Origin: Octopus vulgaris
Lineage: Eukaryota
Direction: 5' to 3'
NCBI GenBank assembly: GCA_951406725.2
Contig: OX597821.1
Location: 110,050,001 to 110,114,000 of the forward strand
Length of the DNA: 64,000 nt
The notes under the pieces were generated by a model, which had not been told where the DNA came from, did not search any database, and saw nothing but the letters and a program-made list of their open reading frames with translations. The position numbers were made by a program, and so were the translations under genes. Positions 27,605 through 50,724 of this stretch are shown one piece after another. Numbering within the stretch: the stretch's first letter is position 1; each line of letters opens with the position of its first letter.

Positions 27605-29390
27605 GTATTTCTTTATTACCCACAAGGGGCGAACATAGAGGGGACAATACAATCGGGGAACTTAAAATAAGAAAGCGAATGACAAGAAAAGGAAAAAATA
27701 AAAGTAAAAAATGACATATGAAAGAATATTTACAATGAGATGTAAATGCCCACTCGATCCCCGGAATCGAGAGGTTACATTTTCGTCACATATATTTCAC
27801 AAAATTTTCTTTTTTCTCTTTTTTTTTTTTTCCTTCTCACAATTCTATACGTATTCTATCATAGTTTCCACTTCTCTGAAGTCTATCACTGAGCCCTCAG
27901 GCAGCCGCTCTCTCATTCGAACCTTCGTGTAAAATATTACACTCTCTCCGGCAGCTCTGAGGAACTCAGCGACTCTTTCTTCGGGGATTAGAGCAGTCTC
28001 CTGCCACCGATCGGTCATCCTGTTGACCCATATATGTCCCTCCGTTTTACATGTCAAGTCTTTCATTTCAGGGCAGAAATGGAAGGTTACTAACTTGTAG
28101 TAATAGTAATCTTGTTTCCGTCCTACGTTTTCTCTCGTTTTTCTTTTCGGGCTTATTTCTTCCTTGTTCTCCTCTCTTTGTTTCTCTCTTTCTCTCTTTT
28201 TGCCTTCTTTTCTTTCTCCTTCCTTCTCTTGTCTTTTTGGTTCTTTCTCTGTTCTCTCTTTCTCTCGTGTTTTATGTTCCTTTTCTTTTTCCTTTTGTGT
28301 GCCGTCTTTTCTTTTCGTTTGATTCTGATCCCTCTCTTGTTTTTTTCCTATTGTTTCTTTTTCCTTTTTTTTCCTGACTCTGTTTTGGTTCTATTTCTTT
28401 CTTTTCTTTTATTTCTTTTTCCTTCATTGACTTATTATTTCCTTTCTCTTGTTGTTTTGTTTCCTTTTCTATGTTTTCTTTCTCATTTACAGTATTCTTC
28501 TTTTCTTCAAGTTCCTGCTCGCACTCCGCTACGAATTCGTATAACGGGCACTCTTTTTTAATGTGCCCCCTTGTTCCACACAAGTAACAGTTTGGTTTTC
28601 TCCCCTCTACAATTACGCTGAGGGTTTTTTCCTCTTCAATTTCAATTCTGTATGGAAAACTTTCAATATCCTCTTTTGTGGCCATCAACCACAATTCTAC
28701 CCCATATCCTCTCCAGTTTACCGCGTTGGACTCCTTAATAGATTCCACCTCCACTTCCTCTTCTGCTGCTCCTAGAATAGCTGTTCTGTTTTCACTTCTG
28801 GGGGTATATTCGGGATTTTAACCCGGACCCCTCTTCTTCCCTTGTATGAGGGCCACATTGTGAATTTTTCGGCTCTTAGTACGGTGGTAGCCAGTGAGGT
28901 CGCAATTTCTTCCGTTGCACATCTCACCTCCACCGTACCAAATTTCTTGCCTCTACTCACGTAGGTTATTTTTCCCATTATGTCTCCCAGACATTTTTCA
29001 ATTTCGACTATCTCCACTCTTGCCAGTTTCTTCGTATTTTTGTCTTGGGTTCTGTATGTCACTGTCTTGCTTTCTTTATCCTCTTTTGCTTTCGCGGGGG
29101 GGATTAGCTTCACGCTATCACCCTCCCTTTTGAAGAGCTTTTCATATTCTTTGAGTTTATCCTTCTCAAAGAAAACCTCCTTTATGATTATCGACGAATC
29201 GTTATTTTTCCCGGTGACCCCCGCGTAAGTCGCCATGACTAGAGGGTCAATTCACTTTCTTCGGAAGGTTTCCACACGTGGAGGCAAACGCTTCGCGCGA
29301 TATCAAATCAATTTACACAGAAAAAATTTCACCGCCTAGTCACAGATAACAACACGCATAGATTTCCGACACGTGTTCCTACCGAACTCA
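27605..29390 (-). mobile_element. ORF1-only non-LTR retroelement 1
   Basis: TSD AACGTCCTATCG (27593-27604) / AACCTCCTATCG (29391-29402). Gag-like ORF, AATAAA near the 3' end, no RT or endonuclease. Confidence 0.75.
27845..29236 (-). pseudogene. Gag-like/ORF1p nucleic-acid-binding protein with CCHC zinc knuckle, frameshifted
   Basis: ORFs 28772-29236, 28272-28754 (CYLCGTRGHIKKEC followed by a K/E-rich tract) and a probable C-terminal piece at 27845-28066. Confidence 0.75.
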
Positions 29391-29571
29391 AACCTCCTAT
29401 CGAGTTCACAATTTTTTTTTCAAGAGGATTGCGACGTTTAAATAAGAAATGGAAATCATTTAGTTAATCATGCAATTTTGGGAATATTCCATTTTTTACT
29501 GATATATACTACAATAACAAAGAAATTATTTAAAATTTTAGATTTATGCATAAGTATTCTTATGGTTCCAA

Positions 29572-29920
29572 AACGCATGGTCCTCAGTTCAGTCCCACTG
29601 TGTGGTAACTTGGCATGTGTCTTCTACTATAGCCTGAGACCAACCAAAGCCTTGTCAGTGGATTTTGTAGACAGAAACTGAAAGAAATCAATCGTATATA
29701 TATGTATGTATGTATGTAAGTCTGTGTATGTGTCTTTGTGTTTCTCCCTCATCACTGCTTCACAACTGGTGTTCGTTTATTTACATCCCCATAACATACT
29801 GGTTTCACAAGAAGAAACTGATAGAATAAGTACCAGGCTTATCAAAATTTTAAAAAGCTCTACGCAGTGTCTCACATTTTTGTTTGCCCACTCAGTTGTA
29901 TCTATCAATTTATCTTTGTG
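29572..29920 (+). mobile_element. Diverged SINE family A copy and flank; its 3' ~260 bp is duplicated downstream
   Basis: GTTCAGTCCCACTG B box. 29659-29920 resembles 29988-30059 joined to 32845-33040. Confidence 0.65.
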
Positions 29921-29944
29921 TGTGTGTGTGTACATATATATATG

Positions 29945-29991
<47 letters not shown>

Positions 29992-30061
29992 ATTTCGTGG
30001 ACAGGAACTGAAACAAATCAATCGTATATATATGCATGTATATATGTAAGCGTATGTGTTT

Positions 30062-32767
30062 TAGTATTGGCAACATGAATGACAATAGCCAGAGACTACT
30101 TGAATTTTGCACATACCATAACCTGTGTATCACCAACACATTCTTTCCCAACAAGACATCCCACAAGGCATCTTGGAGACATCCAAGATCTCACCACTGG
30201 CATCAGTTGGATCTCATCATTACACGAAGATCCTTTCTGAATTCTGTTCAACTGACCCGTAGCGCGGATTGTGAGACAGATCATTCACTAATAAGAAGGG
30301 TGAGGATTCTGCCTAAAAAGTCCATCACTCCAAGAAAATTAGCCAACCACGCATTAACACTGCCAGAACCTCGAACCCTATACTGCGACAATGTTTTGCT
30401 GTTTTTATCAAGGTTGCCCTCAGTAGCTGCCCAACATCTTCTGCTGAAAGTAGGTGGAATTATATCAGGGAAGCTTTGTATACCACATCAATAGATACTT
30501 TCGGAATGAGAGAAAGGTAAAACCCAGATTTTGTTCAGTGCTGGGCTCTCAGAGCTGGAACCAGTTATCGAAGCAAAGCGTACAGCTCTGATGCAATACA
30601 AGAGTGGTTCTTCTACAAAGTCACACGAAGAACTCAGAAAGGCAAGAAATAAAACCCAACTGACTGCCAGACGCTATGCAAATGGGTATTGAAAGGAAAT
30701 CTGTCAGAGTATCCAGTCAGCTGCTGACAGTGGCGACACCCGTAGGATGTATGCCGGTTTGAAGAAGGCCCTCGGTCCATCCGCAAATACCTCAGCCCCT
30801 CTGAAATCAACTACTGGAAATCTCATCAGGGACCAAAGCAAGCAAATGGATAGATGGATGGAGTACTACCAGGATCTCTACTCACGAGAGACCACGGTAG
30901 CTGAGGCTGCAATCGAGGGTGTCAAGATCTTGCCAGTCATGTGTGAACTTGACAGTCTGCCATCTATAGCAGAGCTCACCAAATCTATTGACTCCCTAGC
31001 AAGTAACAAGGCTCCGGGAAAGACGGCATCCCCTTAGAGATCATCAAAACCGGCAAAAACACCATCCTGCTTCGGCACATTCATGAGCTTCTGTGTCAGT
31101 GCAAGTAAGAGGGTACAGTCCCTCAGAATATGCGGGATGCTAACATCATTACGCTTTACAAAAATAAAAGTGACCGTGATGATTGTAACAATTACCGTGG
31201 AATATCTCTTCTAAGCACAGTTGGAAAGGCCTCTGCTTGCATTATCCTGTCCAGGCTGCAACTAATTGCTTCTCGAATTTATCCAGAATCGCAGTGTGGC
31301 TTTAGAAGCAGATCAACTATTGACATGATATTCTCCATACGCCAACTTCAGAAGTCCAGAGAGCAGAACATGCCATTATATATGGCCTTCATTGATCTGA
31401 CAAAGGGCTTTGACTTGGTAAGTAGAAAAGGCCTCTTCATCCTGCTCCAAAAAATCGGATGTCCACCAAAGCTGCTGAGGATCATCAAATCATTCCATGC
31501 TAATATGCAAGGCACCATACAGCACAATGGTTCAACATCAGCCGCCTTCCAAATAAAAAATGGGGTAGAGCAAGGTTGTGTCCTTGCTCCTACATTATTT
31601 GGCATCTTCTTCTCGCTGCTGCTGTCACATGCCTTTGAGACATCAGATGATGGAGTGTTTCTGCACAGTAGAAGTGATGGGAAACTGTTCAATCTCTCGC
31701 GTCTGCGTGCCAAGACCAAAATTTCAGAAGCATCCTGATCAAGGAGATGCTATTTGCTGATGATGCCGCTCTGGTATCACACACAGAAGAAGCCCTACGA
31801 AGGCACAGCAACTGTTTTGAGCAAGCATTTGGCAACTTTGGCTTAGTTATCAGCCTCAAGACCCCAACATCATGGGTCAGGCTACATCGGACATCCCAAA
31901 CATACATATTGGAGACCACAGAGTATAGGAGGTGGAGAAGTTTATCTATATTGGCTCTACCGTCACCTACAACCTATCCCTTGATGCTGAGCTCAATATA
32001 CGCATTGGCAAGGCAGCTGCTGTGATAGCCCAACTCACCAAACGCGCATGGGACAACAATAAGCTGACCAAGACCACAAAAATGAAGATTTACCAGGCAT
32101 GTGTACTTAGCACTCTACTGTATGACTTTGACGCCATACACACGCCATACGACGCCATACGTCGCCTAAATATCTTTCACCTGCGCTGTCTCCGGAAAAT
32201 CCATCGCATCAAATGGCAGAATCATGTCCCTAACAAAGATGTCCTCAAGCAAGCAGGAATACCAAGCATGTTTGCACTCTTCACACAAAGACGTATGAGA
32301 TGGCTTGGACATGTTAGCCGTATGGAAGATGGCGGAATCCCCAAGGACATACTCAATGGAGAGCTTGCTAGGGGCACTAGGTCTGTGGGAAGACCGTTCT
32401 TACGATACAAGGATGTTTGCAAAAGGGACATGAATGCGTGCAACATCAATATTACCAACTCGGAAGCAGTTGCCAGCAACCGTGGAGATTGGCGACGTAC
32501 CGTGAAAGAGGGAACACAAAGGAGTGACATAGTGAGAAAGGAGAAATGGAAAGACAAGAAAAGACGTCAACAAGAAACTATGACATTACAACCAGTCAGG
32601 CAAAGTCTTCGCTACATTTACGGCACCTGCCAGAGGGAGTGTTTGTCCCGGATAGGACTACACAGCCACAGCAAGAGATGTATTAGGACATGAAATGTAA
32701 AAGCCGGACAAGATTATTTTATGCGCAACTCCATTGTCTCCCGAGACAAAAAGGATGCCAACAACAA
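30062..32767 (+). mobile_element. RTE-clade LINE, 5'-truncated and frameshifted
   Basis: NYRGISLLS, PESQCGFR, AFIDLTKGFD, GVEQGCVLAPTLF, LFADD, C-terminal CxRxCxSRIGLHSH, tail GATGCCAACAACAA. Confidence 0.95.
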
Positions 32768-33081
32768 TATATATGGATTTCGTAGACAGGAACTGTAACA
32801 AATAAATCGTATATATATGTATGTATATATGTAAGTGTATGTGTGTGTGTCTTTGTCTCTGTGTTTCGCCCTCATCACTGCTTCACAACTGCTGTTCACT
32901 TATTTACATCCACATAACTTACTGGTTTCACAAGAACAAACTAATAGAGTAAGTACTAGGCTTATCAACATAAAAAAGCACTAGGCTGTGTCTCATATTT
33001 TTGTTTGCTCACTCAGTTGTATCTATCAATTTATCTTTGTATGTGTGCATGTGTGTGTGTATCTATCTATCTATCTATCTA

Positions 33082-33134
<53 letters not shown>

Positions 33135-34423
33135 CCCTAATGGGAGCCTTAAATCCCAAATTTTAGTAATTTCTTTTATGATCCAAAACTTGGTGAAAAG
33201 TACTGAATGGATCTTTATGAAATTTGGAAATTATATTCTATGCATAAGGGCCATAACACCCATGACAATTCATATATTTTTGCTGTTGATGAAATTTTAA
33301 CCATAGACATTAGACACAAATGAAGTAATATCTATAAAATTTCATCTTACAAAGTTAGAAAGACCCCTCCATGGGGACTTAACAACTACAATTTTGTCAT
33401 TTTATCTAAGCAAAAATGAATACAGTTGTGCTCTTGGAAGCTGTAGGGTTACCCGAGCATAAAAGATGAGCATTATTTGTAATTCAATGGTACAACAGTG
33501 TAACAGTTTGCTTTGACATACACACTGCATAAATTGTCAAGTAAATGAGATGCATCTTTGCCTCCACTGATTCAGTTGCAAAGTGTAGAGTAAAATTTAT
33601 TTGATTGCAGACCTCCTTTCAGTCTTTTTATTATCACTCGGTCACACATAGTCCCCAGATGGTAACATTGATTTCAAGGCCTTCCCAGATGAGTGACTGG
33701 TTATTCGAAGACATTTATAGATTTTAAATTTATTCTGTCCAGTTACGTATCAGTATAGTGGTCATTTGCAAACTACAGAGGTGACACTTTCATTTCTCCT
33801 TAGCTCTCACGTCAAACAGTTGTTAATGTTGATTTCAGTTGGGTCACGCCCTTCCAATTGCTATAGATTTGTAATGCATCTTACGGCTGTGCCTGTCACC
33901 TGGATGGTGAAGAATCCTACATTAGGAGTGGTAACGACTAGGGTAGGGTAACTGACTGCTTATTGTGATCATTCGTCTTTTGGTTTCCTGTAGCTTTGCT
34001 CTCTTTTACAAACCCAATGAACATATATTTCCTATTTCAAAGAAATTCAAACAATAGATATAAGACCCAAGTTAAAAAGATTTTCAACAATTCAACTTCT
34101 CTGGTTGACATTAAGATGCCCACCCCCAACAGGGGCCTTAACTCTCACATTTTAGAGCTCCATGACCTTCATTTTTCAGGAACAAAATCTTTTTAACAAG
34201 TTAAATAAGACTGGAATTTTGGAATATGCGCATAAAAATCAGGATTATGGGATACATGTGGCACGATTACAATTTTTTAGGGTGTGTAAAGATTGAAATA
34301 ACCCTCATCTGCAATTTTGATGAAATTCGAAACATAGATATTCCAGTTCATAACAGAAGATATAACAGAAAAGTCTAATTCTCCAATTGAATGTAATCGG
34401 GTAACGCCGGGTATCGCTGCTAG
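33082..34423 (+). mobile_element. Non-autonomous Helitron-like element
   Basis: TC(TA)n-AAACACCC start; 3' end CGGGTAACGCCGGGTATCGCTGCTAG|T, similar to 13722-13750. Confidence 0.65.
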
Positions 34424-34488
34424 TTATATATAAATATAAAAAAGTAAAAGATATGCAATAAATATAAATATGTATATAAAAGTAAAAA

Positions 34489-34549
<61 letters not shown>

Positions 34550-34844
34550 TTCTTTTCTTTCTTTTATTCTTTTACTTGTTTCGACCCGAACACTTCTTTA
34601 AAGTAATTCTATATATTTTGCAAGAAAGAACAATAATATTATGTATATACTTGCCACCATCGGGGGGACAAACACAAACACACACACAGTTTCCGTCTAC
34701 CAAATTCACTCACAAGGCTTTGGTTGGCCTGAGGCTCTAGTAGAAGACCAAGGCGTCGCGTAATGGGGCTGAACCCAGAACCATGTAGTTGGTAAGCAGG
34801 CTACTTACCACACAGCCACTCATGCATATGTATGTGTGTGTGTA

Positions 34845-34886
<42 letters not shown>

Positions 34887-35162
34887 TGTGTGTGTGTGTT
34901 TGTGTGTGTCTGTGTGTAGTTTGACAAGTGTCAATGAACGAAACTCTCGCCCCCGAGTCACTCTGTTGCTTCTGCTAAATATTGATAAACACATATATGA
35001 CAAGCTTTTTCAGATTCCGTCAACCAAATCTACTCACAAGGGTTTAGTCGACCCAGGGCTATAGTAGAAACACCCGCTCAAAGTGCCACGCAGCTGGACT
35101 GAACCCGGAACAGCTTACAACACAGTCACGCCTGCTTCTATTCACATATATACATGATATAT

Positions 35163-35386
35163 ATTTCTTTTGCTACCCACAAGGGGCTAAACATAGAGGG
35201 GACAAACAAGGACAGACAAACGGATTAAGTCGATTATATCGACCCAGTGCGAAACTGGTACTTTATTTATCGACCCCGAGAGGATGAAAGGCAAAGTCGA
35301 CCTCGGCGGAATTTGAACTCAGAACGTAGACGAAATACTGCTAAGCATTTCGCCCGGCGTGCTAACGCTTCTGCCAGCTCGCCGCC
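35163..35386 (-). mobile_element. SINE family B
   Basis: Reverse complement of the 6102-6330 sequence. Confidence 0.85.
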
Positions 35387-36067
35387 TCTTGCATATAAAT
35401 CTATGTGCGTATATAGACACAGTTATACATACACATACCTAGTCATGGATGGCTACACACACGTACACATACACATGCAAGTAGTCACACGAGTGTACAC
35501 ACAACCACACACATACGCACGCACACACACACACACACACACGCATACACACTCGCACGCACGCACATAATCTCCTTTCCTCTCACCCTTATTCTTCTAA
35601 GCAAACACACATCTACACACACATAGAAAGGCATGCATGCACGCAGACATAAGATTAATTCGCGGCCAAATTTCAGGGCAGACGTTGAAGAGAAAGGACA
35701 AGCTATTGAAAAGGTCGCGAAAAATAGCGACGAACGGACTTTCACGAAGAAATAAAACTTTGATTGTTTAACCAAACAAACGATCGATTACGAAGTTGGT
35801 CAGATGTGTAACCATATCGTTATTGGCATAATGACCCTCCCAAGAATCAACAAGATGTATGTGTGTATACGTGTGTGAGTGTGTGTGCGTATGTGTATAT
35901 ATGTATGTGTGTGTGTGTATGTATGTGTGTGTGTGTGGCAAAAACAGACCGATAGAATAAGTACTAGGCTTACAAAGAATAATCCCTAGAGTCGATTTGC
36001 TCGACTAAAGGCAGTGCTCCAGCATGGCCAAAGTCAAATGACTGTAACATATAAAAGAATAAAAGAG

Positions 36068-36098
<31 letters not shown>

Positions 36099-36209
36099 AA
36101 TCCAAACGGGAAACAAAAAAACAACAACAATGGAACAATTACAGTATTATTATTAATAGGCGCTCGGGAAATGGAAGCAGGGAGGTATATATATATATAT
36201 ATATATATA

Positions 36210-36605
36210 CTAGCAGTGTCGCCCGGCGTTGCTTGGGTTTGTAAGGGAAATAACTGTATAAGCATTTTTAGAGATGTAAAGTATAATAGCCATCTCAATA
36301 TGGCTAACCACAAAGGGTGAGTGTTACTGTAGCTTTTTACATTCTGAGATTTAATAATACATTTTTAGAGAGTTACTTCCCTTATATAAACCGAACGAAA
36401 ATGCATTAAAAATGCGGAAAAAATTATGGTAATTTTTTTTTAAATCGTAAACTCATCGTAGACGTGCGCTAATACCAGAAGGGCTCGATATGAATCACGA
36501 CTATAAGATACCTGCTTTTGGTTACACTGCACCGCAAAATGAGGGAGTAGTTAGGAATCTAAATCGTAGGAGACAGACACACAACTTCACTTTTATATAT
36601 AAAGA
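36210..36605 (-). mobile_element. Short non-autonomous Helitron
   Basis: Minus strand A|TCTTTATATATAAAA...CCCAAGCAACGCCGGG...CTAG|T, inserted in (TA)n. Confidence 0.8.
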
Positions 36606-36779
36606 TATATATATATATATATACACACATACACATATATATACAGTATATATATATATATACATATATATATACAGTGTATATATATATATATATATAT
36701 AAAATTTGAGGGAATATTATACATAACTTACAGGGAAAAATTCAATTTAGAAATACTAATTCAAATTTCACGAAATATA

Positions 36780-36810
<31 letters not shown>

Positions 36811-37513
36811 ATTAGAAAAAACCACCTTTTATCAATTCAAAATGAACAATTAAATTACATATAATAGAAAATTACATATAATAGAAATATTAAATATAAA
36901 ATAATAATATACCGATGATTAAGTAATGTGCAAAATATAAATAAATCGTATATATCACGAATTGATAAAAGGTGTTTTTTTTTCTAATTTATATATATAT
37001 ATACAGTCTTTTCTGTTGCTTGACCATTAATACCTGCTATATATCTCTCTCTTGCTGCCTTCGAAACACACTGCCACACATACATAGACGCACACACACA
37101 TACATGAAAGCAATTTCTCACACTCAAACACTCTAGCACTCATTCTTAAAATAATTCAAATATAAACACCAGTCATACAGAATACATTCACACTCTTTGA
37201 TTTTCCTGTACCCCCCTTCTCCTAACCGGATTCTGACCTTGAACTATCTTAACGGACATTCTCGTCTGCTTTCACCCAGCCTGGCGTCAACGCATATAGA
37301 TAGACAGTTTGTGCCATTTATTCCATGGGCTCCTCGTGAGCGTTTGTGAAAAGCTTGCTGTGCATTTTGTTGGAGAATTAAGTTCCTGGATTTTCCTGAA
37401 GAGAAGGCTGCAAAATGGACTCCTTATTCAATCCGAATTAGGGACTTTGCAGCCTTTGAAACATATGTAGAAAATAATAAAAAGGAATTTTGTTAAATCT
37501 TCGTTTCTTCCTA

Positions 37514-37585
<72 letters not shown>

Positions 37586-37788
37586 GTGAGTGAGAACACT
37601 TTGAGATATTTTTGGTATCTAACATATGTCAGATACTGCGAGCGCTGCTTTTGATTGGTCAATCCATGGTGATGACCCGACGTCACGGTGACGGCACTAC
37701 TTTTGTCATTCATAAGTTACAACTAAACGTGAAGAATTTAGTTATTGGGTTAATAAAATATGGTCGTTTATTCGTGTGTAATAAATAA

Positions 37789-37889
37789 AATACCAAACTC
37801 ATTCCCTATGGATACCGTATTTATTACAACTCGTTTACAAGTCACTCGTTGTAATAAATACGGTATCCATAGGGAACTCGTTTGGTATT
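37789..37889. repeat. Inverted repeat (29-bp perfect inner arm plus 10-bp outer arm), MITE-like
   Basis: TTCCCTATGGATACCGTATTTATTACAAC / GTTGTAATAAATACGGTATCCATAGGGAA. Confidence 0.85.
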
Positions 37890-38142
37890 CTCTATATATA
37901 TTCAGTCAAACTAATGCACCTGCTTGTTATTCCTGCACCTGTCTTCGTCTTTTGTTGTTTTCTGTAAATATCCTTTGATATATGTGTGCTGCAAGATTCT
38001 TGATGTGAAACCGTGCGTTGAAACAGATATTGTTGTATTTCGAGATAGTTATTTTTTCCCTCTTTTTGCCAAATAAACAGGCGCACTATATAATTCCCTT
38101 TTCACTCATTTATTACTGTTCTTATTCTAATTTATGTTTATC

Positions 38143-38185
38143 GTCCGGAAATCTTTCGTCACACCTCTGTGAACTCTTCAGCGAC
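38143..38185 (-). ncRNA. Minimal type I hammerhead motif
   Basis: Minus strand: gtcg-CTGAAGA-gttcac-agaggt-gtgac-GAAA-gat-TTC-cggac. Confidence 0.6.
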
Positions 38186-38411: not shown

Positions 38412-38470
<59 letters not shown>

Positions 38471-39070: not shown

Positions 39071-39147
<77 letters not shown>

Positions 39148-39663: not shown

Positions 39664-40254
39664 AGCAACAAACAAGATGAGGACAAATATCCGTCCAATG
39701 TAAAAAATGTAAATATTGTACAGAATTCCTCATCTCTAAAATATAGAACAATTTATGATTGTTTCAAAAATTCCATGTTGACTTAATCTTGCATCGTGTT
39801 TTTAAACGACTCCACAATTAATGATGTAGTCATATCCGTTGTACAGATACCCCGTTCATAGAAATGATCCCTCGCAACTCACTACAAAAAATAATATGCT
39901 GAAGTGTTTGTCTATCGCTTAAATATAGGACATTAATCAATGTTTATAGTGGACGGCACAGCGGTCACGTTTATAAACATGATTGAAGATAAGTCAAAAT
40001 GAATTTGTAGAAATAATTGTAAACTATGAAACAAAAATAATAACGCAAACTCCACTTTTCAGTGCTTATTACTTCTGTAACCCCTCAGAGGAAACATGAC
40101 TCCTCCTTCACTCCTCTCCACCCTTCATTTATGGTTTGAGAATAATTCTATAATTGTTGTAAACTGGAATGGAACTTACTCTCTTTCTGCTCACATCCAT
40201 TCACCATTTAATGCTACTTGCTTTGCATCTTTTAGAGAGATAGATTAGATATAA

Positions 40255-40650
40255 CTAGCAGTATCGCCCGGCGTTGCTCGGGTTTGTAAGGGAAATAACT
40301 ATATAAGCATTTTTAGAGAGTTATAGCCAAAACATAGCAAAAAAAATGCATTAAAAATGGAAAAAAATGATGGTAAATTTTTTTTTTAATCGTTGACTCA
40401 TCGTAGACATTTTTAGAGAGTTAATTCCCTTATATAATATCGAAAAAATGCATTAAAATGGTAAACAATTATGGTAAATTTTTTTAAATCGTAGACTCAT
40501 CGTAGACGCGCGCTAATACCCAGAAGGGCTCGATATGAATCACGACTATAAGATACCCGGTTTTGGTTAAACTGCACCGCAAAATGTGGGAGTAGTTAGG
40601 AATCTAAATCGTAGGAGACAGACACACAACCTCTCTTTTATATATAAAGA
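40255..40650 (-). mobile_element. Short non-autonomous Helitron
   Basis: A|TCTTTATATATAAAAG...CCCGAGCAACGCCGGGCGATACTGCTAG|T on the minus strand. Confidence 0.85.
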
Positions 40651-42114
40651 TAAACTCAAAGAGCAACTAGAAAGTGAAAGTAGTTTCTAACTTAGGATGT
40701 CTCATAGATAGTGGTGGAAATGGTGTTGGAGGTGATAGATGTGGTTATCATGGCAGTGGTGGTGTAGTGGTGACAGTGGATGTGTATGATGGCAGAAATT
40801 ATAGTGTTGGTGTTTTTGTAGAGGTGGTGGTGGCGGTGGCGGCAGTGGATGATGATGATAATGATGATGATAGTAGTAGTAGCATTGATTATGTTAGGAT
40901 GTCTCATGGATGGTAGAGTTGAAGACATTGCTGAGTGTAGTGGTGGTGAAATTGGTGATTTTGAATATGATGCTGGTATTGATCTTGGGGTTGTGGTTGC
41001 AGAAGATGGTTGTGGTGGTGGCATTCGAGGTTGTAGTAATGGTTGTAGTGGTGGTTGTGAAGATGATTCTAATATTGATAGTCTTTGCATTGAGGTGGTG
41101 GCAGAGTCAGAGTAAATAATAAGAGCCCAGTTAACACAAGATTCTTAAATTTCGGAGATCATAAGATAGAGAGCAAGAAGTTAAAAGTTCCAATACTGGC
41201 CCAATACCTACACCCCAGATTCTTCAACTATTTTATAAGAAAGGGGTTAATGGCAGGATAGGGATTCAGCTTTAAAATAAATTGTATAACAAAAAATACA
41301 TAAATAAATTACTGCTCCAACGATGTAATTTTAGTATGTGTGTGTAAGCAATGCAAACAATGGAAAATAATTTAAACACTCATTTTCTGATGTCTAAGGA
41401 TGGATATTTATGCGTATGAATCTTTTTCTTTTTATTTTCTTTGAAATATAATTCTAGGGAACTGAAAAAGCTGTGTACGATGCCAAGCGAATTTAGCTAT
41501 TTACGATGAGCGGATGTTTACGTTACAAACGAATCTGTAGGTCTGTTTACATGTTTACGTTAACTACGTCACAAAATAGCTGTTTACGTCACAGTAACAA
41601 TATTTTGAGAGGCAGTAAATAATATGAGGTCGAAAGAAAGAATATCATTGGTTAAAATTCGAATTATTAAACAACGTTAAACTTAGAAATTACAATTCCG
41701 TTTTCATTTTGGTTTACAATTATGTTTTCTTTTGACACATTCTACCAGTATACGAAGTTTCAAATTGTTTAGTTAATTAAGAAAATCTGGCCTTCAAACT
41801 GAAAAGATCCTGGGAATGTTCTGAGAGGATAAAATGGCAGATACAAAAACCGTTGGAAATAAAAGAGCCGTTCACGACAACCCAAAAACATATATATCTA
41901 TATCGTATTCTAGGTAGCACGCATGTGTTACCATCTATCATGGCAAATAATTGAAAGAGGATAGTTTTCGGGAAGATAACAAAACATGAATAGCTAAATT
42001 AGAAGAATTTAGAATACCGAGACACAGAATAATAATATGATGTGTGTGTGTGTAAATGTCGACATTATGCTTAAACACATGTATACATTTACATGCATAC
42101 ATGTGTGTCTGTAT

Positions 42115-42265
<151 letters not shown>

Positions 42266-42397
42266 CCTGCTCGCTTAGCCAGCGGGGTGGCGTCATTTGA
42301 AGGCTAAAACAATGCGAAGCGCATTGTGACCAGCGATGTGTAGCAACATCTGATAGCCTGGTCGGTCACGGTGATGACGGTGATATATATATATATA

Positions 42398-42987
42398 CTG
42401 TTGTCCACTGTGGTCTCCCCACACAATACAAGGTATCATAAAAGTTGAAGCACCTCAAAGGGCAATCACAAAAAAGATAGATGGCATGACAGGCCTCGAC
42501 TATTGGGGTCGGCTAGAAAAGCTAAAACTCTATTCTCTCCAACGTCGTCGTGAGCGCTACATCATCTGCATGATGTGGAAAATATTCCATCAGCATTGCC
42601 CAAATGATGTTGGCATCACCTTTAAGGTACATCCAAGGCTTGGGCCCCGTGCCATCCGCCCAAAACAAAAATCGCACTCATCTCATAACAACAATACGGC
42701 ACAATTATTTCACCTCAATTGGCCCCGCTCTCTTTAACATTACACCAAAACACATTAAAACAGAAACTGACCCTATAGGGTTCAAGAAGTCTTTGGACAG
42801 ATTCCTTCAAGAAATCCCGGATAAACCCCCTACACCCGGATATGTCTCTGTAAACAATAACTCTCTACTTGAGTGGGCCATAGTGCCCAAATTCTGACTT
42901 GAAAGACTTCACCAGGTGGTGCTATTTAGTTAGACATGGCCTGGGCCAATAATGGCCGAAACCTATCAAAGTATCAAAGTATCAAAG

Positions 42988-42988
<1 letters not shown>
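42398..42988 (+). mobile_element. CR1-group LINE 3' fragment
   Basis: RLEKLKLYSLQRRRERYIICMMWKI, GPALFN and FKKSLDRFL; tail (TATCAAAG)n. Confidence 0.8.
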
Positions 42989-43023
<35 letters not shown>

Positions 43024-43240
43024 TATACATATATGCACCCACCATACATGTATATATATATATATACGTGTATTTATGATACATATTATATAGGTGTATG
43101 TGTATGTATGTGTACATATGTATACAGATCAATATATTCAGAAAGTTGTAGACACAGATATATACAGAGGGATATATTATATGAATATAGCAGCATACAG
43201 CTGTCTCCTTGAAAAGACACGTGCGTGTTTTTTGAATTTT

Positions 43241-43278
<38 letters not shown>

Positions 43279-43497
43279 ACGCACACACACACATCTGCTT
43301 GAGTACTTGAATGTAGACACGAAAGGTTAAATGAGTACTCGATACCAAAGTAGCGTTTTAATAATGATAGTCAAATGTTGGCCCCTTACATCTGGGTATT
43401 TGGATCTCAAGGTTTCCGAGCTTCAGATTTGATATAAATCGTTGCATAAATGATGAACTATCCAAAATATACCGGAAGTGTGCGCAGAGGAGAGATT

Positions 43498-43722
43498 ACT
43501 CTTTACTCTTTTACTCTTTTACTTGTTTCAGTCATTTTGACTGCGGCCATGCTGGAGCACCGCCTTTAGTCGAGCAAATCGACCCCGGAACTTATTCTTT
43601 TTGTAAGCCCAGCCAGTACTTATTCTATCGGTCTCTTTTTGCCGAACCGCTAAGTGGCGGGGACGTAGACACACCAGCATCGGTTGTCAAGCAATGCTAG
43701 GGGGACAAACACAGACACACAA

Positions 43723-43807
<85 letters not shown>

Positions 43808-44096
43808 GGCTTAGTAAAATAAATTACTTTGCCGCATACTGAACTCATTAGAAATAGCAGCTAAAAAAACTTTTTTAAAACTATTTCCAATACTTAAAAC
43901 TTTCTTTAAGTATTGGAAATAGTTTTAAAAAAGTTTTTTTAGCTGCTATTTCTAATGAGTTCAGTATGCGGCAAAGTAATTTATTTTACTAAGCCCTTTA
44001 TATAATGTAATAATTTGAATTCGCCTTAAATGGTCCCTTTGCATACTGAATACTTGGTGAAATTGATTAATTAATTAATTTTACCCTCAATTGTTG

Positions 44097-44153
<57 letters not shown>

Positions 44154-44318
44154 TACGACAGGCGTCTTTCAGTTTCCGTCTACCAAATCCACTCACAAGG
44201 CATTGGTCGGCCCGGGTCTATAGCAGAAGACACTTGCCCAAGATGCCACGCAGTGGGACTGAACCCGCAACCATGTGGTTGGTTAGCAAGCTACTTACCA
44301 CACAGCCACTCCTGCGCC
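43498..44318 (-). mobile_element. SINE family A with a fold-back element inserted in its (TA)n tract
   Basis: SINE halves at 43498-43740 and 44150-44318. Confidence 0.85.
43804..44098 (+). mobile_element. Truncated PLE/retrozyme-family element with a perfect 95-bp inverted repeat
   Basis: 43804-43898 pairs with 43905-43999 around a 6-nt loop; the tail is homologous to 7775-7875. Confidence 0.75.
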
Positions 44319-44609
44319 TTGCGGGTAAAAAAAAATATAAATCAAATAGGTTTGAAATGTAAAAGAAAAGAAGAATGCACTTTCGTAATTAGTAACGCAT
44401 TTTCCGGTTCTGTTAATCCACCAGTCTCAAAAAAAAAAATGGTTATGTGGTCAGGAAGCTCGCTTTATAGTTGTATGGTTTCGGGTTCAGTCCGACCTCG
44501 CGGCACGTCGGGCAAGTGTTCTCTCTTATAGTCCAAGGCTTATGTTTGTTTTTTTTTTTGTTTTTTTCAGAAGGAACCGGTGTGGAAGCCATTTTATATA
44601 TATACAATA

Positions 44610-44993
44610 CTAGCAGTATCGCCCGGCTTTGCTCAGGTTTGTAAGGGAAATAACTATAAAGCATTTTTAGAGAGTTATAGCCAAAAAATAGCAAAAAAAT
44701 GGAAAAAAATGATGGTAAATTTTTTTTGAGAGTTAAAAAAGGTGGAGTTGCGTCCCCTAGACAGTTTGCGGTTTGTGTTTCTGATTCTCGACCCCATGTC
44801 GAATTTATCGATTTTTTTCAGAACTGGGGGAACTTTTCAGAATTTTCGCTGCGTTAGTTTTGAATTATGACATTGGGCTATGTGTGTGTCAAGTTTCATC
44901 AGAATCGGTTGAAAGCCGTGGTCAGGGTGAGGGTACAAGCAAACAGGCACACAGAAACACGCACAGACAAATTGCCGTTTATATATATAGAGA
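44610..44993 (-). mobile_element. Non-autonomous Helitron with the shared 3' end and a different 5' body
   Basis: The CTAG/hairpin end matches 40255; the 5' end is TCTCTATATATATAAACGGC. Confidence 0.75.
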
Positions 44994-45074
44994 TATACAT
45001 ATATATACATATACATACATATGCATACACATACATATATATGTATGTATATATATCTTTCTTTTTCTTTCTTT

Positions 45075-45467
45075 TTATTTGTTTCAGTCATTTTGACTGC
45101 GGCCATGCTGGAGCACCGCCTTCAATCGAGCAACTCGACCCCGGGACTTATTCTTTGTAAGCCCAGTACTTATTCTATCGGTCTCTTTTGCCGAACCGCT
45201 AAGTGACGGGGACATAAACACACCAGCATCGGTTGTCAAGCAATGCTAGGGGGAGAAACACAGACACACAAACATACACGCACATACATATATATACATA
45301 TATACGACGGGCTTCTTTCAGTTTCCGTCTACCAAATCCACTCACAAGACTTAGATCGGCCCGAGGCTATAGTAGAAGACACTTGCCCAAGGTGCCACGC
45401 AGTGGGACTGAACCCGGAGCCATGTGGTTGGTAAACAAGCTGCTTACCACACAGCCACTCCTGCGCC
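45075..45467 (-). mobile_element. SINE family A
   Basis: Near-identical to 10188-10583. Confidence 0.85.
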
Positions 45468-45496
45468 TATATATATATTTTTTTTTCTTTATATAT

Positions 45497-45584
<88 letters not shown>

Positions 45585-45652
45585 TATATATATATAAACG
45601 TGGAATAAGTATAGTGTTATTAGTCGCCAAAGAAAGGAAAGAAGGAAGGAGG

Positions 45653-45687
45653 ATTTCACGTTTCGAGCGGAGCTCTTCGTCAGAAAT
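45653..45687 (-). ncRNA. Minimal hammerhead motif (GUG at cleavage triplet, probably inactive)
   Basis: Minus strand: attt-CTGACGA-a-gagc-tcc-gctc-GAAAC-GTG-aaat. Confidence 0.65.
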
Positions 45688-45825
45688 ATAGGAAAAAAGA
45701 AAAAGTCAAAGTAAGGAAGTCGGAGTAAGAAAATCGCCAACGATATACACGCAGTCATATATTCGTTAGCTACTGCACGCATTTTTTTTCTCTCCTTCTT
45801 TCCGTGTTTTTTTTCTCTCTGTGTA

Positions 45826-45863
45826 TCTTTCTGTTGAAGAGCGTAGGCTCGAAACATTAAAGA
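45826..45863 (+). ncRNA. Hammerhead-like motif with CUGUUGA core variant
   Basis: tcttt-CTGTTGA-a-gagc-gtag-gctc-GAAAC-ATT-aaaga. Confidence 0.55.
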
Positions 45864-46060
45864 CTTGTTTTATTTATATTTCCTGAGCGCCATACTAATA
45901 CAATTGTTCGTTTGTTTTCCACCTGCCTTCGTCTTTTGTCTATTTTCATAAAGCTTCCCGTTATATATATATATAGTTCAAATTTACAGACAACAAAAAC
46001 GAGGACAGATATAGGAACAAGCAGGTGTATTAGTTTAACTCTCGAGAGGAATTGAAAAGT

Positions 46061-46096
46061 CTTTTACGTTTCGAACCTACGCTCTTCGACAGAAAG
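46061..46096 (-). ncRNA. Hammerhead-like motif with CUGUCGA core variant
   Basis: Minus strand: cttt-CTGTCGA-a-gagc-gtag-gttc-GAAAC-GTA-aaag. Confidence 0.55.
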
Positions 46097-46160
46097 GATT
46101 ACAAGATTAAAAATGGCGAAAGAATAGTGACCGCATATAAGCTTTATGCTTACAATTGTC

Positions 46161-46230
<70 letters not shown>

Positions 46231-46299
46231 TGCTGTATTTCTGGATGGTCATCTTTTTTTCTTTCACAACTTTCTTTCACTCATTCTTCCTGTTTCTAT

Positions 46300-46490
46300 T
46301 GTTCCTGTATTTCAAAGGGCCAGCCTTGTCACACTCTGTGTCACGTTGATTCTCCCCGAGAACTACGTTAAGGGGAACACGTGTCTGTGGAGTGCTCAGT
46401 CACTTGCACGTTAATTTCACGAGCAGGCTGTTCCGTTGATCGGACCAACTGGAGCCCTCGTCGTCGTCGTCGTAACCGACGGAGTTCCGT
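46300..46490 (+). mobile_element. SINE family C, 3' fragment
   Basis: Reverse complement of ~55945-56100. Confidence 0.65.
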
Positions 46491-46799
46491 GATATATATG
46501 TAGAGATAGATAGATATATAACCACAAAGTTTTATTATATTATATAACCTCGCTCCCCCAAAAGAATAAACAAGAAAAACAAGTGACAAGTCGAGTCAAT
46601 AATACAGTAGCAATGGGTGTGTTTGAGGGAGTTTGTGTGTCTGGGTGTGATTGAAGGGAGCGTGTGTGCGCGTGTGCGTGTGCGCGAGGGTACATGCTAA
46701 TAGACGGATCAGTAAGAACAGCGCATTTCATATTGAACTACCTGTAAGATGTTTCATTAGTGAATAGACACCCAGATATGCGAAACGCTGTATTACAAG

Positions 46800-47695
46800 A
46801 CATATGTTTATATAGGTGTGTATATGTGTGTGTATGTGTTTGTGTGTGTTTTGTACGTGTGTGTGCTTGTGCAAGTAAGCATATAAGTATACATATACGT
46901 ATATGCATACACATACATATATGTACATGTATGTACATTTATATATTTCCGTAAATACACACCCGAACACACACACACACCACCACACACGCATATATAT
47001 ATATATATACACACATACACACATACATACACACATACATACATACATACATGCATACATGCATACATATATACATACATACAAACATACAAACATACAA
47101 ACATACACACATACACACATAGATACACACATACAAACATACATATATGCATACACACATACATACACACATACATACATACATACACACATACATACAC
47201 ACATACATAGATACATACATACATACATACACACATACACACATACACACATACACACATACATATACACATACAAACATACATATACACATACAAACAT
47301 ACATAGATACACACATATATACATACATATATACATACATACAAACATACAAACATACAAACATACACACATACACACATAGATACACACATACAAACAT
47401 ACATATATGCATACACACATACATACATACATACATACATACATACACACATACATACACACATACATAGATACATACATACATACATACATACACACAT
47501 ACACACATACACACATACACACATACATATACACATACAAACATACATACATACACACATACATACATACAAACATACACACATACACACATACATACAA
47601 ACATACAAACATACATACATACACACATACATACATACATACATACATACAAACATACACACATACATACATACGTACGTACATACATATATGTA
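46800..47695. repeat. Complex (CATA/CA)n microsatellite
   Basis: Directly visible. Confidence 0.95.
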
Positions 47696-48528
47696 GAAGC
47701 GCGTAGACACACTGCGAGAGGTGCACAGAGGTATACGAAAAGTGTAAACAAACGCACGTAAACAAACATGATATCAATTAGATGTAAATTGTGGTCGAAG
47801 ACGACAATCTTTCGGTGGCAGAGATTTCTGAAGTGAAATCATAAACAAACATAGATTGAAAGCAGCGTAGGATGCGTTGCGGGCGGAGGAAGAATAAAGA
47901 CCAGATCGAGGTGGGAGTTAGGGGAGTGAACAGTGGACGAGACTCTTAAACAAACCTCAAATAACTTTAGATAAAAGTTTTGGAAGGGTTTTTTTGTTGT
48001 TGTTGTTGTTGTATTCGTGCAAATATAAATGTGTGTTTGGGCGTGTGACTGTATACCTTTATACATATACACACACTCACATACATAACGCGTATATGTA
48101 TGTATGTTATGTATTACTCTTTTCTCTTTTACTCTTTTATTTGTTTCAGTCATTCGACTGCGGCCATGCTGGAGCACCGCCTTTAGTCGAGAAAATCGAC
48201 CCCGGGACTTATTCTTTGTAAGCCCAGTACTTATTCTATCGGTCTAATTTTTGCCGAACCGCGCTAAGTGACGGGGACGTAAACACACCAGCATCGGTTG
48301 TCAAGCGATGGTGTGGGGGGGGGGAGACAAACACAGACACACAAACATATACACACACATACATATATATATAAATATACATATATACGACAGGCATCTT
48401 TCAGTTTCCGTCTACCAAATCCACTCACAAGGCATTGGTCGGCCCGAGGCTATAGCAGAAGACACTTGCCCAAGATTCCACGCAGTGGGACTGAACCCGG
48501 AACCATGTGGTTGGTAAGCAAGCTACTT

Positions 48529-50724
48529 TATTTCAAAACATTTGCCATAAAGGCAGTACACAGATTAAGTTAGCTTTGCGGGCTGGACGAGGACATTAAT
48601 GAAGTGAATGATAATGAAAGAAAGATGATAAGGATGGGAGAAGACAGAAAGCGCCCGCCGACTTTTGCTTCTCTAAAACATTGTTCTTTTTAAAAAGATA
48701 AACACAAAACGAGGTATAAAACCTCTTACAATTTTTCCCAATTTTGGGCTTAGCAGTCCATTATTAATACAAAACGAGGTATTAATCCTCTTACAATTTT
48801 TCAATTTTTGGACTTAAGTCCATTACTAATAATACATATCGTCCTCGAAATAGCTTGTGCCCGCGCCCTCCACCATCAACCACGCCTCCCTCAGAACGTA
48901 GTCAAGTTCCGAGTTCGCGTCGCCCGGGACCAAGTTATAATCTTCGTTGAGCTCCTTTAGCCCTAGCGTCACGTCGAACGCCACGGCCTCCACAGCTACC
49001 TGCGGAGGCCATTCGGGGTCCTGTGTGAAGGCTAAAGGTGCTCCCTTGTAGTGCTCTTCCATCACTTTTTCAATTTCTCCTCCTCTATAGAAGAGGACCA
49101 ACACATTTAGTTCTTTCGTTGGCGGCACAGTTTCCGCCAACGGTATTCCTTCTCTTGTCGGTGGCACAACCCCAACCGACGTAGTTCCGCGACATTCCGG
49201 TGCTACACTGACAGCCGGTAATGTCCCGTTTTTCTTCCTCTTTTTCTTTTTTTTTTCCCTTTTCAACTGAGGGAGGGTGCGTCTCCTCCGTGGCTGGAAG
49301 ATTCGCCTTCCTCTCCTCATCCCTATTATCCTTTGGTGAGCACCCATTGTTGCTCACCTTCCTCTTTCGGCCTCTGTTTGAGGAGTCCTCTGCTTTCTCG
49401 GCCGTTATCGTTCCCTCTTCTAGAGGGGTTTTACTTAACTGTTCCGGGATCCTATTTTGTTCCCGAGGACAGTTCTTCTTTATGTGGCCGGACTCCAAGC
49501 ACCGATGACACTTAGGGGGGCGACCCTCAAGCATCACCGGGTACCTGCACCCGGCCATTTTCAAAAAATCTGGAAGAACCAGATTGGCTGATTGTGTCCA
49601 CAGAGTCAAAATTGCTTTCGACCCAACCCAAGCAGCCGCAGGAAGAACTTTTACATTGAGGAGCTTAGTTTCGCTGTCACCCAGACCCCGGCGGATAGTC
49701 TCCTCTATCCACTCGGGTTCTATGTCGGGTGGCAGTCCGCAGATCCAAGCTTTCATCAATTTCTTTTTTTTGTACGTGGGCAGGAATAAGATTTCCTTAC
49801 CCTCCAAGGGTTTGCTAGCAAATATGCAAGCCTCTTCAGGGGTGTCAAATAGCAACCACACCGTTGCATATTTGACACCCCTGAAATGAATTTAATTGTT
49901 GGCAAATACTCTTCCAACTCCTCCTCAATTGCCGTCTTTTCGAATAGGGCGATGGTGTCAAGTGCCTTGGAGTAGGTTCTCAACACCACCGTCCTATCTT
50001 CACGGTCTTTTAACCACTTTTTGGGTGGTATGATTTCCCACTCCAAAATTTTGTTATTTTTCATTGCCATGTTTTTTTAAAAATATATTCAAATTAAACT
50101 CAAAAGCAGGAAGAAAAAAGTTCAAAAGTCTAAATAAAATTTGATAGATTTTTGAAAAAACAAAAAGGAGAAAGCACAACAGAAGGGAAGAAATTAACGG
50201 AAAGTCGCAATAAAGAAAAAAACAAAAGGGGGGGGGTTAAATGAAGTTCAAAAGAAAGTTAATAAACAGAAAAAACACAGCAAAAATATTCTGGCCTTGC
50301 GGTACTCCCGGCCTGGGTTGAACCTGGAACGCCGCAACTGCAACACAACCTCCACAAAAATGGGTCCGAAAGGTAATCCAATAGTGGCTTATTTTTATAA
50401 TTTTCTTGCGAAGTAGTAAAACACAAGCAAACAAATTAATTTTGCGGAGGGGCTACTCCTCCTCAAAAAGCACAATTCTCACTAAAGAGTGAGACCTTAG
50501 ACACGACAACAGGCAGAGAAATATATCTGAAGTAAAGTGAAGTCTATTACCCGCAAAAAAATATTAATGCTAGATAACGTTAACTGCTAAATAACATTAA
50601 GCAAGCAATAAACTTCACTATGCTTCTAAAAATACAGAACGTCTTACCTGTCACCGAGTCAAAAGTTCAACATTTCACGTTCAAACACGTGACATTTGCA
50701 GGAGCAAAAAACAACACGTCTGTC
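48529..50724 (-). mobile_element. ORF1-only non-LTR retroelement 2
   Basis: Perfect 17-bp TSD TGGTAAGCAAGCTACTT (48512-48528 and 50725-50741). About 650 bp of 5'UTR, one gag-like ORF, AATAAA at the 3' end, no RT. Confidence 0.85.
48826..50070 (-). pseudogene. Gag-like/ORF1p protein with CCHC zinc knuckle, two frameshifts
   Basis: ORFs 49756-50070, 49085-49861 (CHRCLESGHIKKNC) and 48826-49347; homologous to 27845-29236. Confidence 0.8.

Follow-up and report, generated by a model that had tools for sequence, protein, structure and literature searches.

Two frameshifted ORF1-only elements in the Octopus vulgaris genome and the non-LTR retroelement families to which they probably belong

The window (the whole 64,000-nt stretch of Octopus vulgaris contig OX597821.1 that was analyzed, positions 110,050,001 to 110,114,000) contains two minus-strand elements, E1 and E2. 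Their parts and flanks are as follows.

27605..29390, minus strand: E1, 1786 bp, ORF1-only non-LTR retroelement, dead copy
29391..29402, no strand: 5' copy of the E1 target-site duplication, pairing with 27593..27604
29237..29390, minus strand: E1 5'UTR, 154 nt; three CGTGT motifs (element positions 18, 35, and 113)
28772..29236, minus strand: E1 ORF1 piece 1, from the ATG; covers the first predicted RRM-like domain and runs into the second; 53% to P0002
28272..28817, minus strand: E1 ORF1 piece 2; rest of the predicted second RRM-like domain, CCHC knuckle, charged linker
27845..28390, minus strand: E1 ORF1 piece 3; charged linker and 87-aa terminal segment
27606..27652, minus strand: E1 3' tail with AATAAA, common to an abundant tRNA-type SINE
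27593..27604, no strand: 3' copy of the E1 target-site duplication, 12 bp, one mismatch
48529..50724, minus strand: E2, 2196 bp, ORF1-only non-LTR retroelement, dead copy
50725..50760, minus strand: 5' head of the host SINE, separated by E2
50725..50741, no strand: 5' copy of the E2 target-site duplication, 17 bp, exact
50071..50724, minus strand: E2 5'UTR, 654 nt
49756..50070, minus strand: E2 ORF1 piece 1; begins at the ATG and stays in frame as far as ~49885; 67% to P0001
49085..49891, minus strand: E2 ORF1 piece 2; predicted RRM-like domains, CCHC knuckle, linker; 75% to P0001
48826..49353, minus strand: E2 coding piece 3; terminal segment, no relative detected
48698..48831, minus strand: tandem duplication in the E2 3'UTR, about 65-72 bp, 85%
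48512..48528, no strand: 3' copy of the E2 target-site duplication, 17 bp, exact
48201..48528, minus strand: rest of the host SINE; the intact copy at 10255-10561 matches it at 89%

E1 and E2 are real elements. The boundaries and duplications given for them in the first-pass annotation were reproduced, including the one mismatch at E1 and, at E2, the exact repeat and the interrupted SINE. Their ends fit the non-LTR type: the duplications vary in length (12 and 17 bp), neither element has an LTR or a terminal inverted repeat at its ends, and there is no poly(A) tail in either, the last bases running directly into the duplication. The stretch duplicated by E2 is single in all four aligned intact SINE copies. 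Because exact 17-mers arose by chance in 12 of 150 unanchored 200 × 200-nt boxes under a looser complexity filter (a 12-bp match in 30 of 150), the case for the E2 insertion rests on the split SINE. For E1, an equally good match was found in 51 of 1731 anchored random trials on the window (~3%), and in 164 of 2888 trials with 5 nt of slack; taken alone, its duplication gives modest support, weaker than that of E2. The E1 insertion lies outside the SINE that E2 splits.

Both coding regions are spread over three overlapping frames, and E1 and E2 are therefore dead copies; the open frames of piece 1 span 28772-29251 and 49756-50076, respectively. The elements had been described as complete, with one CCHC-knuckle ORF each; the ends and the knuckle hold, but the single intact ORF does not. 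CGTGT occurs twice within the first 40 nt of each element, as described, and the 5'UTR of E1 is predicted to contain an internal promoter. The 3'UTRs are 240 nt (E1) and 297 nt (E2) long. An AATAAA had been assigned to both; it lies within the tail of E1, whereas that of E2 is complete only with the first two bases of the target duplication. We detected no reverse transcriptase (RT) or endonuclease signal in the six ORF pieces, five RT/endonuclease-region fragments from the window's own LINEs did not match E1 or E2, and open frames in the UTRs reach at most 71 aa, all of which bears out the earlier statement that neither enzyme is encoded.

The two proteins are homologous yet diverged beyond DNA similarity, as had been proposed: tblastx aligned them at E=1.5e-16 in three collinear blocks of 30-58% identity, whereas no DNA match was better than E=0.48. 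One CCHC knuckle is present in E1, E2, and the aligned full-length homologs (zf-CCHC, E=3.3e-5 in E1 piece 2, which is 60% identical to P0002), and the knuckle was the sole matching part in a PDB sequence search. Atlas leads for ORF1 were zf-CCHC, PRE_C2HC, and ZCCHC3 RBD clusters. Structure prediction, which had been suggested as a check, gave a usable result for the homolog P0025, with a core pLDDT above 90 and matches to tandem-RRM proteins (E 1.6e-4 to 1e-3); folding P0001 from its single sequence gave no usable model (pLDDT 38). VIA-align with residues 78-225 returned solely ferredoxin-like/ACT/RRM matches (Z<=8.1), the C-terminal domain being barely tested. Transposase_22 had no match among the six pieces, 30 homologs, or 25 of the 38 families listed for 109 members. 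On the predicted fold, the ORF1 of E1 and E2 is of LINE type I (as defined in PMC4120745), with two predicted RRM-like domains and one CCHC knuckle. The 87-aa terminal segment of E1 weakly resembles the C-terminal domain of P0062 (1/1000 shuffles; best of 8 comparisons); C-terminal domain profiles built from six and from two homologs missed E1 and E2 piece 3, and BLASTP and Atlas found no relative for the terminal segment.

A search with a profile that took in only the knuckle part of E1 piece 2, a piece misplaced in four alignments, found 410 cluster representatives at E<=0.001. Twenty-one representatives were looked up, and all 11 that carry organism names are octopods. A second profile, built from 11 relatives with no window sequence, found solely E1 and E2 pieces among 1214 window segments; a match on the plus strand at 20356-20997 was set aside as a low-complexity tandem array. 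In a phylogenetic tree, E1 and E2 fall inside one supported clade (96/95), each groups with a relative found in a different Octopus genome, and the homologs are very diverse with long terminal branches. These data agree with the radiated ORF1-only non-LTR family that had been postulated. The ORF1 family as a whole, however, need not be ORF1-only, because related proteins such as P0154, P0155, P0161, P0162, and P0069 sit on contigs of up to 5.4-8.0 kb, with room for an ORF2. Four members of the P0009 cluster lie on contigs of 1849-1930 nt, which may be mere fragments, and P0001 has been annotated as a gene in O. sinensis, where it has three accessions.

Sequencing runs were used to examine the family structure of E2, which was covered in 30 of 30 bins in all four runs. 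Summed depth, which is not equivalent to copy number, was 500-1200 times that of low-depth contigs over ORF1 (three runs); relative to ORF1, it was 0.59-1.21 in the proximal 3'UTR (4/4 runs), 3.3-9.4 times deeper in the last 80 nt, and 4-20 times shallower in the 5'UTR stretch 50415-50651, so that the 5' end is different or shorter in most relatives. An intron in the 5'UTR (donor-like at ~50647, AG at ~50405) would fit the shallow stretch but was rejected, as depth is also low at 50653. The first frameshift of E2 is missing from P0001 and from 25, 12, 1, and 8 contigs of the four runs, and one contig (X13 record 17) spans the junction of the ORF end and the 3'UTR with 6 differences. No contig in the four runs spans the whole of E2 or gives a second full-length copy end to end, and SINE flanks swamped the joint and loose-end tables. 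The similar depth of ORF1 and the proximal 3'UTR, together with the contig across their junction, suggests that E2 represents a high-copy family composed of ORF1 and a short 3'UTR rather than a one-off deletion.

The last 47 nt of E1 match the tail of an abundant tRNA-type SINE at 86-90% over 42-49 nt in all four full SINE copies in the window, a match absent from the first-pass annotation.

62697..62926, plus strand: SINE copy with the tail of E1
54917..55150, plus strand: SINE copy with the tail of E1
35162..35385, minus strand: SINE copy with the tail of E1
6102..6330, plus strand: SINE copy with the tail of E1

Judging from the sequences, the E1 family and this SINE are likely to share one RT donor, and a search for the RT donor of a major octopus SINE could start directly from the 47-nt tail. 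The 5' ends and tails of E1 and E2 are unrelated to each other, neither tail folds more stably than its shuffles (z -1.4 to +0.4), and ARAGORN found no tRNA. At the 5' end of E2, high-depth contigs extend 5-7 nt into the duplication at 50725..50741 (4/4 runs). These short overhangs and one diverged contig (X12 record 16) speak for a target preference, whereas X13 record 24, with 13 further letters unaligned, and the position of E1 outside the SINE split by E2 speak against it. The E2 subfamily may thus prefer one site in a SINE head.

Taken together, E1 and E2 are probably frameshifted copies of two ORF1-only non-LTR retroelements, which likely propagate as multi-copy families with an ORF2 enzyme borrowed from full-length LINEs. 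Transcription from an internal promoter in the 5'UTR would give an RNA of 1.8-2.2 kb, and ORF1p would coat this RNA and may co-assemble with the partner's proteins; ORF1p of such LINEs has been proposed to multimerize with proteins of the partner (PMC5786205). The partner's ORF2p would recognize the retained 3' tail, not a poly(A), nick the target, and prime reverse transcription, with a duplication of 12-17 bp as the result. It is likely that the families descend from LINEs that had a type I ORF1 and lost ORF2 through an internal deletion, an event that may have occurred once long ago or several times. The autonomous partner or parent most likely belongs to the L1/Tx1 group; in O. vulgaris, 13 L1-Tx1 families have been active recently (PMC13282606). 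The LINE clade does not follow from a type I ORF1, and an ORF1 with RRM and CCHC also occurs in I, Jockey, R1, Tad1, plant L1, L2, and one CR1 subgroup (PMC4120745). As for an autonomous partner in the window, the two CR1-like and two RTE-like ends carry other tails. Word-index searches for longer proteins found none with E2 piece 2 or a 34-sequence profile, which are weak negatives, and pattern matches to a partner locus yielded no confirmed case in metagenome contigs (0 of 119 with an 11-sequence alignment, 0 of 239 with P0162 as the query) or in viral contigs (0 of 7).

If E1 and E2 were instead dead-on-arrival products of full-length LINEs, formed repeatedly or singly by internal deletion in reverse transcription or from spliced RNA and never propagating, then frameshifts in both and contigs of relatives long enough for an ORF2 would be natural, and the deep last 80 nt of E2 would be expected if other elements share its tail. 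We regard this as unlikely, because it calls for two events in 64 kb, neither with a detectable ORF2 remnant, whereas the proximal 3'UTR of E2 has about the depth of ORF1 in all four runs and another sequence spans the same E2 junction. It is comparably improbable that a single ancient ORF1-only lineage with no fixed parent LINE uses any active RT by exchanging 3' tails as SINEs do. The unrelated ends of two members of one clade, the SINE tail on E1, the variable 5' ends of E2 relatives, and the tail swapping known for SINEs (PMC4824008; PMC11481361) all fit such a lineage; however, tails of 35-61 bp common to SINEs and LINEs are an ordinary sign of a common donor (PMC11481361), and, according to PMC5753468, autonomous L1 often replaces its UTRs and several independent origins of HAL1 are possible. 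A related proposal, that an ancient octopod ORF1-only lineage outlived its parent LINE by tail swapping and that its E2 branch inserts specifically at a single base of the tRNA-like head of an abundant SINE, is doubtful; if true, such elements would code for protein and still parasitize LINEs for their enzymes and SINEs for their target sites.

The annotation of P0001 as a gene and the ZCCHC3 RBD clusters among the Atlas leads (0.87-0.88) would suit an origin as retrocopies of host genes that were domesticated from an ORF1, as in the ZCCHC3 or L1TD1 type, but this origin is very unlikely in view of the missing poly(A), the depth of ORF1, the SINE-type tail that terminates E1, and the diversity and long end branches of the homologs. 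Least probable of all are remnants of an LTR retrotransposon or provirus with a Gag protein: the knuckle weakly matches retroviral nucleocapsid knuckles (E>=0.001, ~24 residues), but fold and ends contradict this reading, as LTRs are absent, the duplications are 12 and 17 bp, and the protein core is predicted to fold RRM-like. A capsid Gag identity of ORF1 was rejected on the same predicted core.

A survey of mollusc LINEs extracts RT-containing elements (PMC10294476). If the family structure proposed here holds, octopus genomes carry many protein-coding non-autonomous LINEs that are invisible to RT-based annotation, and gene annotation renders such ORF1s as "uncharacterized" proteins or fuses them to host genes. 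They would also be a further deeply radiated case of this life-style, raising the question of why a LINE parasite keeps its own ORF1p. The life-style itself is known elsewhere, in HeT-A, HAL1, and Ag-Sponge; we found no description from a cephalopod.

The earlier label "HAL1-like" suits E1 and E2 in life-style but not in their type I ORF1, their lack of poly(A), or the SINE-type tail of E1. HAL1 carries a 3' poly(A), and E1 and E2 have neither this nor the type II ORF1 (Transposase_22) of strict HAL1. Like E1 and E2, mammalian HAL1 is ORF1-only and interspersed, and it may have several origins (PMC5753468); mammalian L1 ORF1 is of type II with a coiled coil, one RRM, and a CTD (PMC5203782), whereas two RRM-like domains and a knuckle are predicted in E1 and E2. 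An ORF1 with RRM and zf-CCHC is reported to be consistent with Tx1 in non-mammalian animals (PMC5203782); that of E1 and E2 is compatible with the Tx1 clade but not diagnostic of it. Many families of Tx1-clade LINEs (Tx1L, Keno, Tx1-Mar) target other repeats (PMC4494074), as the E2 subfamily may, but E1 and E2 lack an ORF2, unlike these LINEs, and Tx1 is defined by RT phylogeny. HeT-A of Drosophila telomeres likewise has a Gag-like type I ORF1 and no RT; however, the Jockey-lineage ORF1 has three CCHC knuckles (PMC4120745) against one in E1 and E2, and HeT-A occurs in telomeric arrays, whereas E1 and E2 are interspersed with target duplications. In Kojima 2018 (PMC5786205), HeT-A (Jockey), HAL1 (L1), and Ag-Sponge (CR1) are ORF1-present bipartite non-autonomous LINEs, which, like E1 and E2, consist of a 5' part with ORF1 and a 3' end without ORF2. 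That class is mobilized in trans, as E1 and E2 likely are, and E1 and E2 differ from it in their cephalopod host, a type I ORF1 with a single knuckle, and an E1 tail common to a SINE.

E1 (27605–29390) and E2 (48529–50724) are real elements. The first-pass annotation had placed both on the minus strand, E2 within a perfect 17-bp target-site duplication that splits a SINE and E1 within a 12-bp duplication with one mismatch, and both were recovered there: an exact 17-bp repeat bounds 48529–50724, and a 12-bp repeat with one mismatch bounds 27605–29390. The duplicated stretch of E2 is present once in four intact SINE copies of the window, which continue into the sequence 3' of E2. Anchored random trials (1731) produced a match of the E1 grade 51 times; the E1 duplication owes its credibility mainly to its position, 1 base past a recognizable 3' tail on one side and 154 nt upstream of the ATG on the other. 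Neither LTRs nor terminal inverted repeats were found at the ends of E1 and E2, and both lack poly(A). The coding spans (1392 nt in E1 and 1245 nt in E2) are accompanied by 3'UTRs of 240 and 297 nt, respectively. One CCHC-knuckle ORF had been proposed per element; Pfam did show a single zinc knuckle in each, and otherwise nothing of note, but each coding span is spread over three frames, which leaves both copies unable to encode the full protein.

The two proteins align whereas their DNA does not, as had been proposed (tblastx E = 1.5e-16 versus E = 0.48 for the best DNA match). A word-index search yielded one relative from 34 candidates, the Octopus sinensis protein P0001, which has 75% identity to E2, lacks the first E2 frameshift, and reads through that point. 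A profile built from P0001 and four window pieces retrieved 410 representatives at E ≤ 0.001 (73 at 1e-10), part of which are knuckle repeats only; at least 85 profile positions were covered by 103 of the 162 proteins compared, at up to 460 aa. Among 150 listed proteins, 21 were checked, and the 11 named ones all came from O. vulgaris, O. sinensis, O. bimaculoides, or Argonauta, the other 10 being unnamed. In an ORF1 tree of 44 rows, with fragments and near-duplicates left out and E1 and E2 each entered as a single piece, E1 paired with an O. bimaculoides protein (98/99) and E2 with P0001 (100/100), and both groups lay within one 96/95 clade; the E2 branch is long, and its position is therefore less sure. 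Unnamed proteins formed a separate 100/100 clade homologous to the E1/E2 family (hhalign probability 99.4), and a profile from this clade alone recovered three E1/E2 pieces among the six frames of the window. Its members P0028, P0047, P0069, P0082, P0123, and P0138 are ORF1 proteins of 650 to 860 aa with a conserved C-terminal domain that has no Pfam name; the octopod homologs carry a shorter version, predicted to be a small alpha/beta fold. The third piece of E1 may tentatively be assigned to this family domain, and no likeness to it was detected in the third piece of E2. In P0064, P0068, P0070, and P0094, ORF1 pieces have been merged into larger gene models (WD40, LDL-receptor repeats, integrase-like), which could be annotation artefacts or exonised copies. 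A tandem array of ~39-nt units at 20111–21000 (+), open in several frames, scored spuriously with ORF1 profiles.

The homolog P0025, modeled with 109 sequences, was predicted with confidence to have two beta-alpha-beta-beta-beta domains as its core; beyond these come the knuckle region, a linker predicted to be disordered, and a less certain small alpha/beta domain. The best Foldseek matches of this model were the tandem-RRM RNA-binding proteins IMP3, Raver1, Prp24, and Sxl. Type I LINE ORF1s are described as an RRM followed by CCHC (PMC4120745), and by its predicted fold the E1/E2 family protein is of this type.

No RT or endonuclease domain was found in any of 30 homologs scanned singly, nor, except for one weak zf-RVT match (E = 0.026), among the domain families of 109 members (25 of 38 listed). 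Contigs from 4 of 24 sequencing runs were aligned to E2 at 82% likeness, and all 30 E2 bins were covered in each of the four. Median depth over the E2 ORF1 was ~500 to 1200 times that of low-depth contigs in three runs, which is not a copy number; the ORF1 is not a single locus. A 5- to 6-kb LINE with the usual 5' truncation would be expected to show its whole 3'UTR far deeper than its ORF1. The proximal 3'UTR of E2 stood at 0.59 to 1.21 times the ORF1 depth, although depth alone cannot show a junction, and a rise (3.3- to 9.4-fold) appeared only in the last bin before the SINE-affected bin. The E2 stop codon was bridged by one contig (X13 record 17, 48707–48988, 6 differences) with >100 letters on either side; no contig in the four runs spanned the whole of E2, and joint tables were swamped by SINE flanks. 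One related cluster has four members on contigs of 1849 to 1930 nt, and another protein lies on 2209 nt; these lengths fit short elements, but could reflect fragmentation instead. The unnamed sister-clade proteins lie on contigs of up to 8.0 kb and could be autonomous relatives. In the outer E2 5'UTR, depth fell 4- to 20-fold at 50415–50651 in all four runs. A donor-like GT and an AG lie at its borders; splicing was not supported, and 5'UTR replacement or truncation is likelier.

The window contains the following other elements.

30012–32693 (+) and 1222–3672 (-): two decayed copies of a single RTE-like LINE, retaining fragments of endonuclease and RT
42384–42897 (+) and 57045–57494 (-): CR1-like LINE 3' remnants, ending in short tandem repeats, with tails unlike E1 and E2
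25400–26400 (+) and 26890–27350 (+): mariner-like transposase remnants, adjoining the E1 3' end
21243–22430 (+): repeated copies of a GC-rich unit
22430–23230: long pentanucleotide and tetranucleotide microsatellites, directly after the GC-rich unit copies

The mariner-like remnant at 26890–27350 is a short piece with an inverted repeat at its ends. Nearby, the nonrepetitive stretch 27430–27592 (+) has a 50-codon open frame after a polypyrimidine tract and CAG, and could be a host exon; if so, E1 lies antisense within an intron, near the exon. Both RTE-like copies have near-identical 3' ends, each then followed by SINE-like sequence.

The last 47 nt of E1 resemble the 3'-terminal part of a tRNA-type SINE of 230 bp (86–90% in all four full window copies), and the match goes no further upstream. 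In molluscs, common SINE–LINE tails of 35 to 61 bp at 72 to 95% are reported as the usual mark of one RT donor (PMC11481361). The RTE-like and CR1-like remnants have 3' ends unlike the E1 and E2 tails, and the E2 tail had no match within the window. The tail-sharing SINE copy at 6102–6330 is followed head to tail by part of another (6333–6450, +).

The Atlas leads for the E1/E2 protein include ZCCHC3 RBD clusters, which we take to be linked to Tx1 ORF1. RRM/zf-CCHC ORF1s of nonmammalian animals are reported to be consistent with Tx1 (PMC5203782), and in O. vulgaris L1-Tx1 is given 56 Mb and 13 recently active families, against 0.5 Mb for I-group elements (PMC13282606). Because of this ORF1 type, the ZCCHC3 leads, and the abundance and activity of L1-Tx1, L1/Tx1 is the likeliest parent; a CR1 or L2 parent is possible. 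With the structure, protein class, family breadth, and the SINE-shared tail of E1 established, a cycle can be proposed. CGTGTTGTT and a CACGTG are common to the first 45 nt of E1 and E2, and transcription would start from a putative internal promoter near the 5' end; ORF1p would then coat the element RNA, the 3' tail would capture the ORF2p of the partner, and insertion would occur by target-primed reverse transcription.

High-depth contigs of the E2 5' end overlap the duplication by 5, 6, 6, and 7 nt (one value per run). Intact SINE copies differ at the fifth and seventh bases before the E2 junction, near the points at which these contigs end. The alignment of X12 record 16 (low depth, 32 differences) begins where the SINE head does, crosses the same junction, and then departs from the window flank. 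X13 record 24, with 13 letters unaligned, speaks against a SINE flank there. Tx1 elements are reported often to insert into other repeats (PMC4494074). The pattern fits repeated insertion at one base of the SINE head, and such a preference of the E2 subfamily is possible, though less likely than not; it would also result if the 5' end of the element itself lay slightly further out, or from the orthologous locus of a different species.

No description of cephalopod ORF1-only LINEs was found among the literature matches listed, although Repbase, Dfam, subscription journals, and supplements may hold the E1 and E2 sequences; any such entry for E1 or E2 is probably labeled L1-Tx1 or Unknown. The O. 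vulgaris family counts by clade, in the accessible main text and supplement of PMC13282606, list no ORF1-only class. The first-pass annotation had called the elements HAL1-like, which is apt insofar as nonautonomous LINEs retaining ORF1 are a known class comprising HeT-A, HAL1, and Ag-Sponge (PMC5786205); in the strict sense it fails, since E1 and E2 differ from HAL1 in ORF1 type and in their missing poly(A). E1 and E2 are thus a cephalopod addition to the HeT-A/HAL1/Ag-Sponge class, to which they bring a SINE-shared tail (E1) and possibly SINE-head targeting (E2).
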